A DNA stretch of 45,871 nucleotides. Source: a virus (Duplodnaviria; Caudoviricetes). The stretch covers positions 1 through 45,871 of the IMG/VR virus record IMGVR_UViG_3300048560_000066. One strand, written 5' to 3'. Below the pieces are notes generated by a model. That model saw nothing but the letters and a program-made list of their open reading frames with translations. It was not told the DNA's origin and did not search any database. The translations under genes were made by a program, and so were the position numbers. Below are positions 7,746 to 30,494 of this stretch, one piece after another; the first letter of the stretch is position 1, and every line of letters begins with the position of its first letter.

Positions 7746-7775
7746 TTGACATTCGGCCCGGCTGCGTGACACTAT
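7746..7775 (+). promoter_or_regulatory. Sigma70-type promoter for the packaging operon, leaderless
   Basis: TTGACA-N18-CACTAT-N6-GTG(7782). Confidence 0.55.
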
Positions 7776-7781
7776 GCCCGG

Positions 7782-8222
7782 GTGCGAGAAGTCCTCTCAG
7801 CGCTCGAGCAGCAACGCCGCCCGGTGAAGCTGGTCTCCCCGACGAAGGTGAGCCGGCGCGGGACCTTCCGCGACGCGCTCCGTATGGCCCTCGGGCCAGA
7901 TGGTGAGCGGGCCTGGCGCGTGATTCTGGACATCGCCGAAGGCCGGCCCTGGACCCCGACGCTGGAGAACGGCGCGACGGCCGAGCCCGTAGTGCCCAGC
8001 ACCCGCGACCGCCTCGAGGCCGCCACCTACCTGGCGAACGCGCTCTTCGGCAAGCCCGTCGAGCAGACCCAGGTCGCCGCGGCGGAGAAGGCCGCCCAGG
8101 ACAACGCCGAACTCGTGCGGCTGTCCGATGACGAGCTCTTTGCCCGCGCGCGGGCCATCGTCGAGGGGACCGTGGTCAAGGTGACCGAGGTTCCCGACGC
8201 CTCCGAGGAGCCCTCCGAGTGA
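7782..8222 (+). CDS. Probable terminase small subunit
   Basis: First gene of the packaging arm, 146 aa, RLEAATYLANALFGKPVE and RLSDDELFA motifs; mostly positional. Confidence 0.55.
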   Translation: MREVLSALEQQRRPVKLVSPTKVSRRGTFRDALRMALGPDGERAWRVILDIAEGRPWTPTLENGATAEPVVPSTRDRLEAATYLANALFGKPVEQTQVAAAEKAAQDNAELVRLSDDELFARARAIVEGTVVKVTEVPDASEEPSE

Positions 8223-8629
8223 TCTCCGTCCGGCACATGTCGCCCGACGACGAGCGTTTCGTCCGCGCGAGCTGGTTCGAGTCGTACTGGATGGACTACC
8301 AGCGCGAGCGCGGCATCGCCTTCGCCGACTACAAGGCCGGGCAGAACCGCCGTATCGAGACGCTCCTCGAGCGCTCTGAGGTCCTCGTCGCGTTCGCCCC
8401 CGCGGCGCCCGACGAAATCCTCGGGTACGCCGTCATCGAGGGCGAGGCCCTCCACTACACCTACGTCAAGTCCATTTACCGCCGTCGGGGGATCGCGACC
8501 GGGTTGATTCGTTCCCGGGCGAAGACGTACAGCGTGAAGACGCCCGGGATGAAAAAGCTCCTGGCGAAAGTGCCTTTGCAGTTCAACCCCTACACCATCG
8601 AGGACGCCGTCCCCGAGGAGCTCGCATGA
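8219..8629 (+). CDS. GNAT-family acetyltransferase-like protein
   Basis: ILGYAV...LHYTYVKSIYRRRGIATGLI resembles acetyl-CoA-binding motif A (RxxGxA). Confidence 0.7.
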   Translation: MISVRHMSPDDERFVRASWFESYWMDYQRERGIAFADYKAGQNRRIETLLERSEVLVAFAPAAPDEILGYAVIEGEALHYTYVKSIYRRRGIATGLIRSRAKTYSVKTPGMKKLLAKVPLQFNPYTIEDAVPEELA

Positions 8630-8886
8630 AAGTCACCCGAGTCGATTTCAACTACGCCGTCCACCCGGCCGGCGTCAACGGCGGCATGCGCATGAGCGTC
8701 GGCACGCCGGACCTGAAGTTCGCCGAGAACCGCTCCATCTCCATCGCGAAGGTGGATGGCGCGGTTGGGGTCCTCTGCGACTTCGGCGCTCCCGAGCTCA
8801 CCTTCGTCCCCATGGCGAACGTGCGCTCCATCCGCGTCGAGCGCGGCTCGCCGAACCGGGCGGACAGCCCCACCAAAGAGAAGTAA
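8626..8886 (+). CDS. Hypothetical small beta-rich protein
   Basis: GAGGAG RBS, ATGA overlap. Confidence 0.7.
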   Translation: MKVTRVDFNYAVHPAGVNGGMRMSVGTPDLKFAENRSISIAKVDGAVGVLCDFGAPELTFVPMANVRSIRVERGSPNRADSPTKEK

Positions 8887-8892
8887 AGTCCG

Positions 8893-11355
8893 ATGGCGGC
8901 GGAGTTCACCGACCGGCAGGTCCTCGAGGAGGTGGCTCGGCGGGCGGCGCTCGCCGAGAAGACCGCCGCCTTGACCAAGGCCATCCTCGACGAGCTCTAC
9001 GACAAGCAGCGGGCCTTCGTCGAGGACAAGAGCCGGAACAAGGCCGCGGACTGCACCCGCCGCGCCGGGAAGACGATGATGTGGCCGCGGTACTGCACCG
9101 TCGAAGCCCTCCGGCGGAAGTGCCTCATTCGCATCTGGGGCATCAACCGCCTCCGGGCGAAGCAGCTCCTCTGGAAGGAGTTCAAGGAGCTGTTCGAACG
9201 GCACAAGCTCACGCCCTCGATGCACGAGACCGAGCTCGCCATCACCTTCACCAACGGCTCGGAGATCCGCCTCCTCGGCGCCGACAAGGACAAAGAGGCC
9301 CAGAAGAAGCGCGGCGACAAGACGGCGATGGAGGTGGTGCTCGAAGCCCAGCTGTTCGGCGGCTACCTCCGGACCCTCGTCGAGGACATCGCCGAGCCGT
9401 GCCTCTTCGACCTCCAGGGCACCTTCTGCCTCGAGGGCACGCCGGGACCGGTCTGCGGCGGGTATTGGTACTGCATCACCGGCGACGCGAAGGACGGAGT
9501 GACTCGGTGGGTCTCCGAGGGGAAGGACGTCCGGGTCGGCGACGAGACCGAGCGGGTCGGCGCGGGCTGGAGCTGTCACCGCTGGGGCGTGCTGGACAAC
9601 CCGTTCCTCCCCCACGCTCGCGAGGAGCTCGCGCTCCTCATGAAAAAGCGGAAGTGGACCAACGAGAGCCCGACCTACCTCCGGGAGTGGAAGGCGCTCT
9701 GGGTCACCGACCTCTCCGCGCTCTTCTACGCGTACGACGAGCTCCGGAACTCCTTCACCCTGGCGGAGGTGCAGCCCTGGGGGCCTGGGTGGATGCACTC
9801 GCTCGGGTGGGACCTCGGTTCCCGGGACGACATGGCGCTCGTGGTCTGGGCCTGGCACCCGACCCTCCCCTTCGTGTACGAGGCGTTCAGCTGGAAGAAG
9901 AAGGGCGCCCTGAGCGCGGAGATCATGGGGCAGATCGAAGCCCTCGAGAAGCGCGGCTTCAACATCGTCAAGAAAGCGGCCGACACCCAGGGCGGCGGGA
10001 AGATGTTCGTCGAAGAGGTGATGTCGCGCTACTCGCAAGTTTTCGAGCCGGCGAAGAAGGGCGACAAGCCGGGCCACGTGCAGCTGTTCAACGAGGACCT
10101 GCGCCGCGGCTTCGTCAAGCTCCAGCGCGGCTCCGAGCTCGCCGAGGAGATGGCGGTCCTCACCAAAGACCCGGACTGGATTCAGGACCTCCTCGACCCG
10201 AAGCCGCCGCCGGAGAACCCGGGGCAACCGAACCACGCCTGCTTCGTCGCCGGGACGCTCGTCGAGACGGCGCGCGGTGCGGTCCCCATCGAACAGGTCC
10301 GGGTCGGTGACCTGGCGCTGACCCGCGAGGGCTTCCGCCCCGTGGTCAAGGCGGCCCCGACGGGGGTCAAGTCGGTCATTCGCCGGCTCGGGCTGACCGG
10401 GACGGCGGATCATCCCGTCTGGACGGAGAACCGCGGATGGGTGCGACTTGACAGTGTTCGCGGGTCTGATATAGCGTTGTATCTATGCAACCAACCGTCG
10501 TCGAGTGGAACGGCAAGCGCTGGTATCGATACCCCGACTCTGAGCGGAGATCCGATCGCGTCTACTACAAGCGGTCCAACTGGCCCGGCAAGCCGCAGTG
10601 GCTCCACCGGGCCATCTGGGAAGCGCAGCACGGACCCATCCCGCCCAAGCACCACATCCACCACCGAGACGAGGACACCTTCAACAACGCCGTCGAGAAC
10701 CTCGAGTGCCGGCTCGGAGCAGAGCATCTCTCCGAGCACGGGCGAGAGCGCTGGACGCGGGACCCTGCGAGCGCGTCTCGAGGACTCGAGGCCGCGCGCA
10801 AGCTCGCCCCCGAGTGGCATCGCTCCCCCGCCGGTCGCGCCTGGCACGTCGAGCACGGTCGACAGGTCATGGCCGAGCGTCCACTCCACGACTGCCGATG
10901 CATCGTCTGCGGTGGGGCCTTCCGCTCCAAAGTGGCAGGCGCTGCGGTGTGTAGTCCTCGATGCCACGCTGCGAAGCGGCGCGCCAGCGGGCTCGACGAT
11001 ATTGACCGGGCCTGCGACGTCTGCGGCGGCGCCTTCCGGGTCAACAAGTACGCGAAGCAACGAGTCTGCTCCCGAGCGTGCAGTCGTCTACGCGCTGACC
11101 GTCGCTGATCAGCACGAGTACTTCGCGAACGGCGTTCTCGTCTCGAACTGCGATGCGGCCCTCTACGCCTGGCGCGCGGCGCTGCACTTCCTTCACGAGC
11201 TGCCCGAGGAGCCGGTCGAGCGCGACTCGCCCGCGTTCGTCGCCGCGCTCGAGAAGCGCTTCGAGGAGCTTGTCGAGGCACGCGACCAGGAGAAGGCGAC
11301 CGGGCGCCCGTGGTGGGAGCCGGCCGAGGACTTCGGCGAGCAGGAGATCCTGTGA
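8893..11355 (+). CDS. terL: Terminase large subunit precursor with intein (820 aa, ~517 aa spliced)
   Basis: LYDKQ Q-motif, CTRRAGKT Walker A, VVLEAQ Walker B-like, EGTP, GWDLG nuclease Asp, spliced junction PNHA|CDAALYAWR. Confidence 0.92.
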   Translation: MAAEFTDRQVLEEVARRAALAEKTAALTKAILDELYDKQRAFVEDKSRNKAADCTRRAGKTMMWPRYCTVEALRRKCLIRIWGINRLRAKQLLWKEFKELFERHKLTPSMHETELAITFTNGSEIRLLGADKDKEAQKKRGDKTAMEVVLEAQLFGGYLRTLVEDIAEPCLFDLQGTFCLEGTPGPVCGGYWYCITGDAKDGVTRWVSEGKDVRVGDETERVGAGWSCHRWGVLDNPFLPHAREELALLMKKRKWTNESPTYLREWKALWVTDLSALFYAYDELRNSFTLAEVQPWGPGWMHSLGWDLGSRDDMALVVWAWHPTLPFVYEAFSWKKKGALSAEIMGQIEALEKRGFNIVKKAADTQGGGKMFVEEVMSRYSQVFEPAKKGDKPGHVQLFNEDLRRGFVKLQRGSELAEEMAVLTKDPDWIQDLLDPKPPPENPGQPNHACFVAGTLVETARGAVPIEQVRVGDLALTREGFRPVVKAAPTGVKSVIRRLGLTGTADHPVWTENRGWVRLDSVRGSDIALYLCNQPSSSGTASAGIDTPTLSGDPIASTTSGPTGPASRSGSTGPSGKRSTDPSRPSTTSTTETRTPSTTPSRTSSAGSEQSISPSTGESAGRGTLRARLEDSRPRASSPPSGIAPPPVAPGTSSTVDRSWPSVHSTTADASSAVGPSAPKWQALRCVVLDATLRSGAPAGSTILTGPATSAAAPSGSTSTRSNESAPERAVVYALTVADQHEYFANGVLVSNCDAALYAWRAALHFLHELPEEPVERDSPAFVAALEKRFEELVEARDQEKATGRPWWEPAEDFGEQEIL
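10448..10477 (+). promoter_or_regulatory. Internal promoter for the overprinted HNH gene, leaderless
   Basis: TTGACA(10448)-N18-TAGCGT-N7-ATG(10485) in a locally AT-rich patch of the intein coding sequence. Confidence 0.65.
10485..11108 (+). CDS. HNH homing endonuclease with two C-terminal Cys4 zinc fingers, in a different frame inside the intein
   Basis: LHRAIWEAQHGPIPPKHHIHHRDEDTFNNAVENLE HNH motif; CIVC...CSPRC and CDVC...CSRAC. Confidence 0.9.
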   Translation: MQPTVVEWNGKRWYRYPDSERRSDRVYYKRSNWPGKPQWLHRAIWEAQHGPIPPKHHIHHRDEDTFNNAVENLECRLGAEHLSEHGRERWTRDPASASRGLEAARKLAPEWHRSPAGRAWHVEHGRQVMAERPLHDCRCIVCGGAFRSKVAGAAVCSPRCHAAKRRASGLDDIDRACDVCGGAFRVNKYAKQRVCSRACSRLRADRR

Positions 11356-11357
11356 AG

Positions 11358-11531
11358 ATGCCCGCCTCAGACCGAGCGATGCTCGACTTCATCGTAGCGC
11401 TCCGCGAGCGCGGCGTACTCCAATTCACCCTCGGCCCGATGCAGGTCGTCCTCAAGCCGCTTCCCGAGACGTCGAAACACCGCCCCAGACGCCGAAAGAA
11501 AATCGGCTTCGCTACGGAGAAATCAAAATGA
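11358..11531 (+). CDS. Small hypothetical protein
   Basis: AGGAG RBS; FIVALRERGVLQF resembles the next gene. Confidence 0.55.
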   Translation: MPASDRAMLDFIVALRERGVLQFTLGPMQVVLKPLPETSKHRPRRRKKIGFATEKSK

Positions 11532-11833
11532 CCCCCGCCCCTCCCCCGCCGCCCCCGCCGCCTCCCCCCGAAATCGAGGAGACCATCGCCGCGCTCGACC
11601 CGCTCATCACGTTCCTGCGCCGCCGCGGCGTCGTCACCTACAAGGACAACGGGTTGACCCTCACCATCTTGCCGAACGAGCCGGTTGTCGTCGAGCCGGT
11701 GCTCGAGCCCGCACCGGAGCCGGCGGTAAAGGAAGTTGACAAGTCGGCGGAGCCGGAGAAGCTCGGTAAGGACGGGCTCTCGCAGGAGATGCAGGCGGAG
11801 CTGTACGGGCGCCCCATGCCCGACTGGGAGTGA
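11528..11833 (+). CDS. Hypothetical protein with poly-Pro N-terminus
   Basis: GGAG RBS, ATGA overlap; LITFLRRRGVVTY. Confidence 0.6.
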   Translation: MTPAPPPPPPPPPPEIEETIAALDPLITFLRRRGVVTYKDNGLTLTILPNEPVVVEPVLEPAPEPAVKEVDKSAEPEKLGKDGLSQEMQAELYGRPMPDWE

Positions 11834-11834
11834 C

Positions 11835-13820
11835 GTGGACTACACCGACGCCAAGGTCTACAGCTCGGAGACGGCCGCCAAGCGGGCGAAGGCCTCGGCG
11901 GTCGGCGGTGACGCGAGCTGGTGGAACTGCGAGACGCCGGAGGAGCGCCACAAGAGCCTCATCACCTTCGTGAAGCAGCTCGAGACCGACTCGCAAGACC
12001 GCGCGCAGGCAAACCTTCGGTACGCCCGGCTCTACGAAAACGTCGAGCTCGAGACGATGAACGACTTCGCCGGGGCCATCGTCCGCCAGACGCTCCTCGG
12101 CCGCGGCATCGTGCGGATGAACGTCATCGCCGCGTGCTGCGACACCCTGGCGGCGAAGGTCACCAAGAACAAGCCGCGGCCCCAGTTCCAGACGTCGGGC
12201 GGGAGCTGGGACGCGCAGATGAAGGGTCGCCGGCTGAACAAGTTCGGCATCGGCCTGTTCTACGAGCTCAAGGCGCACGAGCTCCTCAAGGAGAGCTTCG
12301 ACGACGCCGAGGTCTTCGGCACCGGGCTCACCTTCCTCTACATGGACCGGGAGACGAAGCGCCTCTGCGGAGAGCGCGTCATCCCCGACGAGATTTTCGT
12401 CGAGAACGCGGACGCCCAGTACGGGAAACCCGCGTCGATGTACCGGCGCAAGCGCGTCGCTCGCGAGCGGCTCATCGAGATGTTCCCCGGCGCCGCGGAG
12501 GCGCTGATGCGCAAGGGCGAGGAGCCCATCTCGCTTGGCGCGGCGAGCGCGAAGGCTCGGACGCCGATGCTCACCGTGTGGGAAGCGTGGCATCTCCCCT
12601 GCGGCAAGCGCGCGGGGTGCCACGTCATCGCCGTCGACGGCGCCGAGCTGTTCAGCGAGCCGTGGAAGCTGAAGCGCTTCCCCTTCGTCGTGCAGCGCTT
12701 CAAGAAGCGCAAGAAGGGCTTCTGGGGGAAGGGCATCGCCGAGGCGCTCACCGGGCTCCAGCTCGAGCTCAACCGGCTGCTGAACTCCATCTCCGAGCAG
12801 CTCCGCCGCAAAGGCCGCGGGCGCATCTTCGTCCAGAAGGGGACGAGCGTCACCCCGAGCCACCTCACCAACGGCATCGCCGACATCGTCAACTACGTCG
12901 GCACCCCGCCGCAGGTCGACAACCAGAACGCGGTCGCGCAGGAGGAGTTCAACGAGGTCGACCGGCTGTACCAGCGCGCCTTCCAAGAGGTTGGCATCTC
13001 CGAGCTCAGCGCGAGCGCGAAGAAGCCTTCGGGACTCGACGCGGCGGTGGCGCTCCGGGAGTTCTCGGACATCGAGAGCGAGCGCTTCGCCCTCACCCAC
13101 CAGGACTGGGAGAACGCTCACCTCGACCTGATGAACCTGGCGCTCGACCTCATCGACGCGTACGGGAACCAGGGCTACAAGGTTCGGCTCCCGAACAAGC
13201 GCTACTTCAAGGAAATCGACTACGCGGAGATCAAGCTCGCCCGCGACAGCTACACGATGCAGGTCTTCCCCGTGTCGAGCCTGCCGCAGACCCCCGGCGC
13301 CCGGTATCAGAAGGTCGTCGAGTCGATGCAGGACGGCTTCATCGACAAGGCGACCGCGAGCCGACTCCTCGACTACCCCGACATCGAAGCGGAGATGAAC
13401 CTCGGGAACGCCGCGCGCGACGACGTCGACTACGTCATCTCCGCCATCCTCGACGAGCCCGAGCCGAAGCTCATGCCGGTCGAGCCGTACCAGAACCTCC
13501 CGCTCCTGGTCGAGCGCGCGACCGCGGCGTACCTCTTCGCCCGGCACCACGACTGCCCCGAGGAGCGGCTCGAGCTCCTTCGCCAGCTCATCGACGACGC
13601 GGCCGCGGCGCTCCAGGCCGCGACTCAACCCCCTGCCCTCCCCGGGGCGCCTGCCGGTCCTCCGCCTTCGGGCGCACCGCCCGGCGGTCCCCCGGGGATG
13701 GGCGCCCCTCCCATGCTTCCCGCCGGAGGGCCCCCGATGGGCGCCCGCATCGGCGGGGACATCACCGTCAACGCTGCACCTCCCGTGCAGCCCGTAGCCG
13801 GCCCGGTCGTCGCCGGCTGA
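11835..13820 (+). CDS. Portal protein
   Basis: ~660 aa between TerL and scaffold, GFWGKGIAEALTGLQLELN motif, Pro/Gly-rich tail; start set at GTG 11835 after GGGAG. Confidence 0.85.
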   Translation: MDYTDAKVYSSETAAKRAKASAVGGDASWWNCETPEERHKSLITFVKQLETDSQDRAQANLRYARLYENVELETMNDFAGAIVRQTLLGRGIVRMNVIAACCDTLAAKVTKNKPRPQFQTSGGSWDAQMKGRRLNKFGIGLFYELKAHELLKESFDDAEVFGTGLTFLYMDRETKRLCGERVIPDEIFVENADAQYGKPASMYRRKRVARERLIEMFPGAAEALMRKGEEPISLGAASAKARTPMLTVWEAWHLPCGKRAGCHVIAVDGAELFSEPWKLKRFPFVVQRFKKRKKGFWGKGIAEALTGLQLELNRLLNSISEQLRRKGRGRIFVQKGTSVTPSHLTNGIADIVNYVGTPPQVDNQNAVAQEEFNEVDRLYQRAFQEVGISELSASAKKPSGLDAAVALREFSDIESERFALTHQDWENAHLDLMNLALDLIDAYGNQGYKVRLPNKRYFKEIDYAEIKLARDSYTMQVFPVSSLPQTPGARYQKVVESMQDGFIDKATASRLLDYPDIEAEMNLGNAARDDVDYVISAILDEPEPKLMPVEPYQNLPLLVERATAAYLFARHHDCPEERLELLRQLIDDAAAALQAATQPPALPGAPAGPPPSGAPPGGPPGMGAPPMLPAGGPPMGARIGGDITVNAAPPVQPVAGPVVAG

Positions 13821-29507: not shown

Positions 29508-29767
29508 TGAGCGACGAGACCCCCAAGGACGAAGATTTCACCGAGTTGAAGCCCGGACAGGGGGGCTGGACTCCTCCGGTGTGGGCCCCGTACGCGGCCG
29601 GCGCGGGCGCGACCGCCCTCGGCTCCATCGGCGCCGCGCTCCTGGCCCTGCCGGAGCCGACGATGATCACCAAGGTCTTCGGTATCGTGCTGCTCGGCCT
29701 CGCGGCCGGTCTGGGCACGGCGGCCGGCGTCACCAGCGCGGGCCCGCGCAAGGCGGGTGGCAAGTGA
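29507..29767 (+). CDS. Holin-like two-TM protein
   Basis: Two hydrophobic helices, basic C-terminus, GGAGG RBS. Confidence 0.55.
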   Translation: MSDETPKDEDFTELKPGQGGWTPPVWAPYAAGAGATALGSIGAALLALPEPTMITKVFGIVLLGLAAGLGTAAGVTSAGPRKAGGK

Positions 29768-30006
29768 AGGCGCTCGTTCTGGCGCTGGCGGCCCTCGCGG
29801 GCTCCGGGTGCGTGACGGCGAACGTCCACGCCCGGTTCTACCACGGCGAGATGCAGAAGAAGATGACCTGCATCTTCGAGCCCGGCGGCCCCGGCGTGCT
29901 CCCGGAGGCGAAGTGCGGCCCTCCGCACATCATGGACTTGCTCGTCCCCGACGAGCCCGGCGACCCGGCTCCCTTGACAGGAGCAAGCGGCCGCACCAAG
30001 ATGTAA
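29764..30006 (+). CDS. Small lipoprotein (o-spanin-like)
   Basis: MKALVLALAALAGSG-C lipobox, Pro-rich, extra Cys pair. Confidence 0.55.
   Translation: MKALVLALAALAGSGCVTANVHARFYHGEMQKKMTCIFEPGGPGVLPEAKCGPPHIMDLLVPDEPGDPAPLTGASGRTKM
29974..30002 (+). promoter_or_regulatory. Sigma70-type promoter, leaderless
   Basis: TTGACA-N17-CAAGAT-N6-GTG(30009). Confidence 0.55.
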
Positions 30007-30008
30007 GG

Positions 30009-30494
30009 GTGCGGACCATTCTCGTTCTGAGCGCAGTTCTGGCGGCCGGGTGTTCCTGTGGGAGCCCCGGCCGCTCGCTTTTCGAGTCCCGATGCGGCGT
30101 GACTGTCGTAGGCGATGAATGGCCCGACGGCTGGTCAGCCGAGGACTTCCAGGCGAACGAGGACCGACTCATGGCCCGCTTCGCCGCGCACGTCACCGAC
30201 AAGCGCTTCAAGGACGCGTGCGACCGGATGCCCGGGACGTCGCTATTCATCCGCCCCGAGGTGCATTGGATTGACGAGCTCGGCCGAGACGTCTGGGGGT
30301 TGACGAGCTGCACGATTCGCCGGATTCAGGTCGGCCGGGCGCTGGTTCCGCCGCTGTCAACGATGGGGCACGAGTACGCGCACATCATCCAGAACTGCGA
30401 GGCGTACCCCCCGATGGACAAGAAGCAGGACCCCGCGCACGCGAATTGGGTCCGCGACCGGATTCACTTCGCCGCGGGCGCCGGGTCGCTCTGA
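30009..30494 (+). CDS. Lipoprotein with HExxH zinc-metallopeptidase motif
   Basis: MRTILVLSAVLAAG-C lipobox; TMGHEYAHIIQ; start reassigned from 29757 to GTG 30009. Confidence 0.7.
   Translation: MRTILVLSAVLAAGCSCGSPGRSLFESRCGVTVVGDEWPDGWSAEDFQANEDRLMARFAAHVTDKRFKDACDRMPGTSLFIRPEVHWIDELGRDVWGLTSCTIRRIQVGRALVPPLSTMGHEYAHIIQNCEAYPPMDKKQDPAHANWVRDRIHFAAGAGSL

Follow-up and report, generated by a model that had tools for sequence, protein, structure and literature searches.

An HNH endonuclease gene overprinted out of frame on a phage TerL intein, with a predicted promoter among the intein codons

In the present study, we analysed a 45,871-nt stretch of DNA from a tailed virus (Duplodnaviria; Caudoviricetes; IMG/VR record IMGVR_UViG_3300048560_000066), hereafter called the window, in which the gene for the large terminase subunit (terL) contains an intein and the intein coding sequence contains, in a different reading frame, a gene for an HNH endonuclease. 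The two-frame layout is real and no sequencing artefact, because 72 of 80 viral relatives and 33 of 52 relatives from GTDB have the same frame and two further assemblies cover the region without gaps; it is also widespread among phages. Sequence comparison shows the layout, its conservation, its frame and the selection on the HNH frame. Beyond that, the HNH gene is probably expressed and probably homing, and we regard it as probable that the intein and its nested nuclease form one mobile element.

Layout of the TerL intein and selection on its two frames

The TerL open reading frame (ORF) runs from 8893 to 11355 on the plus strand as one ORF of 820 amino acids (aa), within which the intein is contiguous and not split between ORFs. 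According to the ORF call, the N-extein (8893-10239, plus strand, 449 aa) comprises the ATPase and most of the nuclease domain and ends in PNHA; it matches the large terminase subunit family PHROG 2 (E 2e-22) and is 80% identical to the intein-less homologue P0052 (515 aa). The intein itself (10240-11148, plus strand, 303 aa in the TerL frame, Pfam Hint_2 at E 1.5e-7) extends from Cys1, whose codon lies at 10240, to a final Ser-Asn, with the terminal Asn at 11146-11148 and the +1 Cys at 11149, and its C-terminus matches TIGR01443 above the cut-off. With a slash marking the insertion point, the window reads PNHA/CDA and P0052 reads PNHA/CDAG, the insert being exactly missing there; at the identical TerL point, as aligned with the window TerL, P0001 (635 aa) carries a mini-intein of 119 aa. 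The C-extein (11149-11355, plus strand) starts with C-D-A, the Asp being assigned by likeness to an H-x-x-D metal-binding motif. In the terminase gp2 of SPP1, H400 and D403 bind the catalytic metal and are required for cleavage (PMC3592435), and the motif split by the window intein may be equated with these residues by motif likeness, not by alignment. A PDB sequence search with P0052 gave no match.

Of the residues typical of class 1 inteins, the window has Cys1, the block B sequence T-A-D-H (10402-10413, plus strand; its His, codon 10411, is invariant in 30 of 30 aligned inteins), the terminal Asn and the +1 Cys. Blocks F and G occupy 11086-11148 (plus strand), block F reading VYALTVADQHEYFA and block G NGVLVSN; in the window intein, block F is VYALTVADQHEYF, then come the terminal SN and the +1 Cys. 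An Asp in block F and a His in penultimate position are the usual intein consensus, common and not obligatory. The Ala in block F and the penultimate Ser of the window differ from it and speak to some extent against an active intein; a penultimate Ser is found in 26 of 71 nested relatives, and the +1 residue is Cys, Ser or Thr in all 71. From the splicing motifs, the 820-aa precursor is predicted to splice out the intein. A single-sequence structure model of the intein was unusable (pLDDT 35).

The preliminary description of this DNA had placed the intein at 10240-11148 and the out-of-frame HNH gene at 10485-11108, coordinates that the ORF call, alignment and Pfam bear out. Its account of an S/T/P/G/A-rich linker devoid of a nuclease motif also proved right: between blocks B and F the intein frame reads as a linker of 192 aa as counted, 71% of them S, T, P, G or A, with no Pfam match to a nuclease domain, and the window intein thus departs from the canonical layout of an in-frame endonuclease. 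The nested gene (10485-11108, plus strand, 207 aa, predicted to be leaderless) lies in frame 3 of the intein, offset by 2 nt. It matches PHROG 15471 (E 1.5e-29) and Pfam HNH_3 (E 2.6e-12), the latter being the only family matched in a Pfam search at E 0.1. An intact His-Me core, as expected of an HNH homing endonuclease, is present at 10599-10709 (plus strand, residues 39-75, the HNH_3 match), and H59, H60, N68, N72 and H81, together with the Cys residues, are invariant in 43 aligned sequences. Two C-terminal Cys4 zinc fingers follow at 10899-11081 (plus strand; C139-C160 and C177-C199), both of the pattern C-x2-C...C-x3-C and predicted to bind DNA; in fold they weakly resemble the zinc fingers of YacG/FCS (Z about 3). 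The two fingers and the position of the stop codon (11106-11108), which falls within block F, agree with what had been described.

The structure model of the HNH protein (pLDDT 95, pTM 0.55) has as its best fold match the homing nickase I-HmuI (1u3e), residues 7-91 superposing with Z 7.1 and an rmsd of 3.5 A over 78 residues; the list of fold matches does not include T4 Endo VII. Two points weigh against this assignment: the match is a middling one (Z 7.1, Foldseek E 0.27, and nothing below E 0.001 in the Foldseek search), and a PDB sequence search with the HNH profile matched no solved structure. The N-terminal core aligns with that of I-HmuI at 15% identity, whereas the C-terminal part of the window protein consists of the two Cys4 fingers. 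I-HmuI is encoded in an intron.

The comparison of dN/dS in the two frames, proposed in the preliminary description, gave 0.18 for the HNH frame versus 1.35 for the linker in the intein frame when pooled over 16 closer pairs, and substitutions at HNH codon positions 1, 2 and 3 numbered 555, 431 and 1177; the pairs have members in common and several are near saturation, which weakens the figures. Nevertheless, as judged from these comparisons, the HNH frame is the selected one, and selection on the intein linker goes no further than keeping it open. It had also been pointed out that both frames remain open over 624 nt. This is true and, at one locus, unremarkable, since synonymous resampling of this GC-rich locus leaves the intein frame open with P = 0.25; it becomes striking only across the family, in which each nested locus keeps the intein frame uninterrupted across the insert although some 3.5 stops per locus would be expected, and chance would leave only 4.2 of 66 loci open. 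The third frame carries about 14 stops per locus, which is likely the reason why this one offset is seen.

Predicted promoter and start of the HNH gene

The predicted internal promoter (10448-10477, plus strand) has a -35 element TTGACA at 10448-10453 and two candidate -10 elements, namely TAGCGT (10472-10477, spacer 18, 7 nt above the ATG) and TGA-TATAGC (10470-10475, spacer 16, 9 nt above the ATG), the second being at the usual position in the family. The TAGCGT reading is favoured because L007 and L097 carry TATTGT at the same position. The promoter segment of the window is 3 nt longer than is usual in the family. The promoter score of the window, computed with approximate weights against a null of extein codon usage, exceeds 3000 of 3000 synonymous redraws (p about 1/3000). 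Furthermore, the 14 codons at 10444-10485 have a GC3 of 0.36, the corresponding values being 0.90 for intein codons 1-68 and 0.95 for the extein, and ten of these 14 promoter-spelling codons occur once or never among the 449 extein codons, CGA, CTT, AGT, TCT, GAT, ATA and CTA being absent from them altogether.

The comparison was extended to 70 non-redundant nested loci (one more, which lacked block B, was dropped), 65 of which had enough extein; the promoter score lay above the synonymous null in 63 of the 65 and reached p<0.05 in 37. As controls we took 14 other phage inteins, one of which turned out to be nested (p 0.03) and one of which was untestable; none of the 12 inteins without this HNH passed p<0.05, the test segment being not strictly homologous in some of them. 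In a test that does not choose the best site, 17 of 65 viral loci have a hexamer TAnnnT whose end lies exactly 6 nt above the start, against a mean of 1.8 at other offsets, and so have 15 of 29 GTDB loci (0.55 at other offsets; four of 33 nested loci dropped). A Shine-Dalgarno (SD) sequence was found in 0 of 19 viral and 1 of 15 GTDB loci with a gap of 6-7 nt, and in 31 of 46 viral and 9 of 14 GTDB loci without such a gap. The window HNH gene has no SD, the duplex with the anti-SD being at +0.3 kcal/mol.

Several results count against the promoter. A strict sigma-70 scanner run over 8000-12500 found none; the -10 of the window is poor and stands 7 or 9 nt from the ATG, versus 6 in the family; the A+T-rich start region could inflate promoter scores under the extein-codon null; only 2 of 6 further nested loci pass p<0.05; and the 6-nt spacing is partly set by the end of the splicing domain. 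The count of TTGACA in the window (11 versus 7.7 expected) is not above chance. The TTGACA-N18-TAGCGT promoter of the preliminary description thus holds in the synonymous redraws and the family comparison, fails the strict scanner and has a rival -10 reading beside it. On balance, we consider the predicted internal promoter well supported by comparison, its likely role being to provide a 5' end for the hidden ORF.

There is some chance, though a small one, that the HNH protein is homing but made from the long terL mRNA by internal initiation or frameshifting, the promoter-like sequence being incidental. The weak -10 would fit, as would the SD, usable on the long mRNA, in about half of the relatives, and no 5' transcript end is seen in the run data, which consist of contigs; those from RNA libraries are even in coverage over the window, show neither transcription nor its start and, because of that evenness, are uninformative on the start. 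Against such a route stand the missing SD in the window, the rarity or absence in the extein of ten of the 14 codons that spell the site, the sharply peaked -10 position, which excludes the SD class, and the same 6-nt promoter geometry at the free-standing HNH genes of L012, L018 and L071. We also considered whether a hairpin might mask the ATG when the long mRNA is made, and rejected this, as the 91-nt region folds worse than its shuffles (z +1.36).

The preliminary description had further proposed that the internal promoter uncouples the HNH gene from the late timing of TerL. This was not supported: a promoter-like site at 7746, made up of TTGACA, 18 nt, TGA-CACTAT, 6 nt and a GTG at 7782, precedes the gene upstream of terL, and because it has the same TTGACA, extended -10 and leaderless build, nothing suggests a timing different from that of TerL. 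TTGACA sites with a -10-like hexamer 6 nt above a GTG or ATG were noted at 7746-7784 (plus), 29974-30011 (plus) and 6434 (minus), the start at 30009 being in frame with the ORF 29757-30494. These sequences suggest that leaderless promoters may be the norm in this phage.

Alleles, mobility and states of the family

The viral relatives come from a scan with the HNH profile covering 600 of about 2400 estimated stretches, in which 504 were confirmed and the best 80 analysed. In 72 of these 80 the HNH gene is nested in an intein-bearing ORF, always in the same relative frame; in 3 the N-half of the intein ends in a stop, 5 are without an intein, and none has the HNH in frame within the intein. The 52 GTDB loci comprise 33 nested in the same frame, 12 with a stopped N-half, 4 without an intein and 3 in frame, and their record titles name Actinomycetota, Bacillota, Chloroflexota, Proteobacteria, Myxococcota and others, although the bins of metagenome-assembled genomes can be wrong. 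The nested form is also present in three phages in culture, TJE1, Highwayman and phiCDHM19, and their records annotate only terL at this locus. The insertion point is not fixed, four neighbouring positions of the motif being used in 36, 28, 4 and 3 of 71 nested loci. When the intein region served as the query, a protein search gave 138 proteins (7995 candidates scored, 120 listed), and most of the listed ones are TerL proteins about 800 aa long whose linker is similar; with the HNH frame as the query there were 56, the majority from contigs 1-2 kb in length. Similar linker-bearing inteins were also noticed at other sites, as proteins only, in P0071, P0102, P0059, P0112, P0087 and P0106, the sites being the ATPase region of TerL and proteins that match Pfam PF00877.

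Full, mini and empty alleles are interspersed on a tree of the N-extein built from 43 rows (18 full, 2 mini and 23 empty; 6 of 49 were dropped as short or incomplete), on which there are 11 changes of the full state, well-supported branches forcing at least 8 of them, and on which the nearest neighbours of the window are one mini and one empty allele. One near-identical pair, L097 (full) and L111 (empty), is about 98.6% identical over and beyond terL, with 21 of 1577 and 17 of 1208 nt differing on either side of the insertion; at the junction itself, 4 of 4 bases before the insertion differ, and so does position +13. Short co-conversion is a known feature of homing (PMC3984707), and the junction differences of this one pair would be as homing with short co-conversion predicts. 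Two considerations run against mobility: the P-proteins in the tree were classed as full by length alone, and the patchy distribution of alleles could alternatively have come from exact loss. The intein-less or mini joint was not seen in four DNA runs, whose contigs cannot show absence.

A quite improbable alternative is that the HNH protein serves as a packaging cofactor of the terminase, of the HK97 gp74 type, and merely happens to sit in the intein. The HNH gene is almost always found at terL or terS, free-standing copies included, and purifying selection on it fits any function; a link to the terminase was also raised for brucellaphages (PMC4422536). However, the same TerL clade has 23 empty-allele loci, 19 of them with 590 nt or more of downstream sequence, and no HNH match was found near any of the 23 (copies elsewhere in those genomes were not looked for), which argues against a cofactor, and the gene is likewise lacking in L111 and in a mini allele 92% identical to the window TerL. 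Proteins of the gp74 type differ from the window HNH in its size (207 aa) and its two zinc fingers.

The same HNH family also occurs in other settings. Free-standing copies lie just after an empty terL in L002, L012, L018, L038, L071 and SN1 and before terS in BP10; in L060, L077, L083 and CL2 the HNH gene stands between the halves of a split intein; and in the Exiguobacterium phage EauM-23 (L094:1960-2900) the same terL motif is interrupted by an intron-like insert that contains the HNH gene and whose removal would restore N-H-S-I-D-A-T-R-Y. This insert bears what look like group I motifs. The annotation of EauM-23 lets terL end early, whereas the tail of the gene lies unannotated beyond the insert. 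Split terL inteins around the HNH gene were observed in L095, L060, L077, L083, L166 and L172, mostly from Bacillota, the split C-half overlapping the end of the HNH gene without an obvious ATG.

The EauM-23 insert and the non-consensus blocks F and G of the window leave a very slight probability that the window insert is removed from the RNA as an intron, or never removed, the intein motifs being relics. Against this, no nested locus has a stop in the TerL frame where several would be expected, Cys1, the block B His, the Asn and the +1 Cys/Ser/Thr are retained, and the insert splits a metal-binding motif required for packaging in SPP1 (PMC3592435). Rfam gave no match for the window insert, a weak argument given that the EauM-23 insert was missed too. 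Least credible of all, to the point of being negligible, is that the two frames are due to a pair of frameshift errors or to the decay of an endonuclease once in frame, as the frame breaks of the old phiCD119 record (L093) relative to its close relative phiCDHM19 and the three weak, distant in-frame GTDB matches might suggest, since the offset recurs in those 72 and 33 independent loci and three cultured phages, selection follows the shifted HNH frame, and the contigs of the RNA-library runs X10 and X12 extend over 8500-11530 with neither a difference nor a gap.

L093 and L092 (phiCDHM19) carry a near-identical element, with several single-base shifts in the older record L093, which may be sequencing error or decay. 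A contig of depth 2 from run X14 shows five C>T changes within 53 nt at 10691-10743, inside the HNH gene, which may be error or damage.

A free-standing HNH gene may have invaded a mini-intein, as had been proposed, but on a quick HNH tree (11 of 80 branches well supported) the 7 free copies are scattered with weak support among the nested ones, and several mini-inteins resemble deletion products derived from the full element, P0050 and P0090 retaining both ends of the overprint. The several states fit collaborative homing followed by capture (PMC3984707). We would give about even chances to a wider proposal, that one HNH family aimed at the H-x-x-D of terL exists in four states, free, intron-like, split-intein and overprinted, the last with codons (R-L-D...G-D-I-L) recoded as a promoter for a leaderless or SD-led start, and that it is an intein counterpart of collaborative homing, spread over many phyla, with intermediates persisting and long stable without moving in frame.

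Residual openness of the intein frame in free copies was tried as a sign of escape and discarded (0 of 7 below p 0.05). A terL-like D-A-x-R-Y just above the HNH start in the intein is exact in 11 of 70 loci and may be a target mimic, as for I-TevII, or simply promoter letters. Above the free HNH starts of L018 (120-175) and L071 (2460-2500), the bases read L-D-A-T-R-Y-A and D-A-C-R-Y in the HNH frame, possibly a copy of the target or a by-product of the -10.

To return to the nested form as a homing element, the intein and the HNH gene would likely act jointly. The 820-aa precursor would splice by the Cys1/Asn/Cys+1 route, as the motifs and the empty allele suggest, to give a TerL of 517 aa with H-A-C-D restored and the S/T-rich linker as a by-product. 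A host-type promoter in the intein codons after block B, for which the comparative statistics speak, would yield a second transcript beginning at or next to the HNH ATG and translated leaderless. The I-HmuI-like HNH protein with its two fingers may then nick or cut near the conserved codons for D-H-x-x-D-A-x-R-Y if a co-infecting phage has an empty allele, whereupon repair would copy the intein together with the nested gene and some bases flanking the insert, as the patchy distribution and the one allele pair would indicate. Later deletions would leave mini-inteins, which are seen.

The window is the 45.9-kb record of a tailed phage with matches to terminase, portal, major head, DNA polymerase and primase-helicase, and near-identical DNA was found mainly in bioreactor metagenomes. 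A GNAT-like acetyltransferase gene (Pfam E about 1e-3, below the cut-off) lies at 8219-8629, between the gene at 7782 and terL.

Known systems and meaning of the family

As a general kind, the out-of-frame intein nuclease is already published. The preliminary description had mentioned such cases from actinobacteriophages, which a 2025 preprint confirms; the prior art is wider than mentioned there, an intein-encoded, out-of-frame HNH gene in brucellaphage terL having been reported in 2015 (PMC4422536). The brucellaphages Tb and Pr resemble the window in having TerL as host, a contiguous intein and a sense-strand, out-of-frame HNH gene with zinc fingers. Unlike the window intein, which lies at the nuclease H-x-x-D, that of Tb is in the ATPase region (GNRAD/C...N/CVIIDD; GenBank JN939331, ORF7/ORF8); its HNH gene is offset by 1 nt with the fingers first and the HNH last, whereas in the window the offset is 2 nt and the HNH comes first, and it matches the profile of the window family only weakly (28.6 bits). 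The word promoter is absent from PMC4422536.

For actinophage inteins, Gosselin, Arsenault and Gogarten (bioRxiv 10.1101/2025.01.02.630785) describe frame-3 Endo VII-like and antisense nucleases. Their elements share with the window a sense-strand His-Me nuclease in frame 3 of a contiguous intein, and the same invasion model is proposed there. By its description, the frame-3 nuclease of that preprint is Endo VII-like, and the HNH cases there are in frame, whereas the window HNH is out of frame. The layout is called rare there, against about 500 confirmed members of the window family in 600 scanned viral stretches that matched the pattern, and the word promoter is absent from the main text; the supplementary tables could list members of the window family.

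In fractured genes, split inteins surround a free-standing endonuclease (Dassa et al. 2009, PMC2677866), which lies with its own control signals between the intein halves, its 3' end overlapping the C-half. A comparable stopped N-half occurs in the 3 viral and 12 GTDB relatives mentioned above and in phage CL2, whereas the window intein is contiguous, and the endonucleases described for fractured genes are GIY-YIG and Vsr-like, unlike the window HNH. In ShiLan, an HNH gene is inserted out of frame in phage methylases (PMC11855218); it is like the window in encoding an HNH protein of about 200 aa with zinc fingers in frame 3, with leaderless translation suggested, and unlike it in that there is no intein and no promoter was identified there. 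Literature on the present family of nuclease and site, its promoter and its two start modes was not found in a search of openly accessible papers and preprint main texts, which gave only the papers cited here.

Other nested arrangements came to notice among the phage inteins. The DNA polymerase I of Streptococcus phage Javan113 (L137:1501-2430) has an intein with an unannotated 259-aa sense ORF offset by 1 nt, which, to judge from its motif, may encode another His-Me nuclease. The Vibrio phages 1.265.O and 1.266.O (L135 and L145, from 1501) have inteins with antisense ORFs of about 256-259 aa that resemble Vsr-like/EDxHD nucleases, the kind reported for actinophages.

The novelty of the window family is limited by the basic layout being known already; what is added is the size of the family, a predicted promoter spelt by codons of the intein and the variety of states found at a single site. 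Inteins of this kind would be classed as carriers of a degenerate endonuclease, which points to a gap in annotation. How inteins gained their endonucleases is an old question that has been argued mostly from rare cases. The window family offers hundreds of copies, its states at this one site range over empty, mini, split, free-standing and intron-borne, and several of them are available in cultured phages, TJE1, Highwayman and phiCDHM19 being nested, SN1 free-standing, CL2 split and EauM-23 intron-like. With several states and cultured carriers at hand, capture, expression and homing become directly testable.

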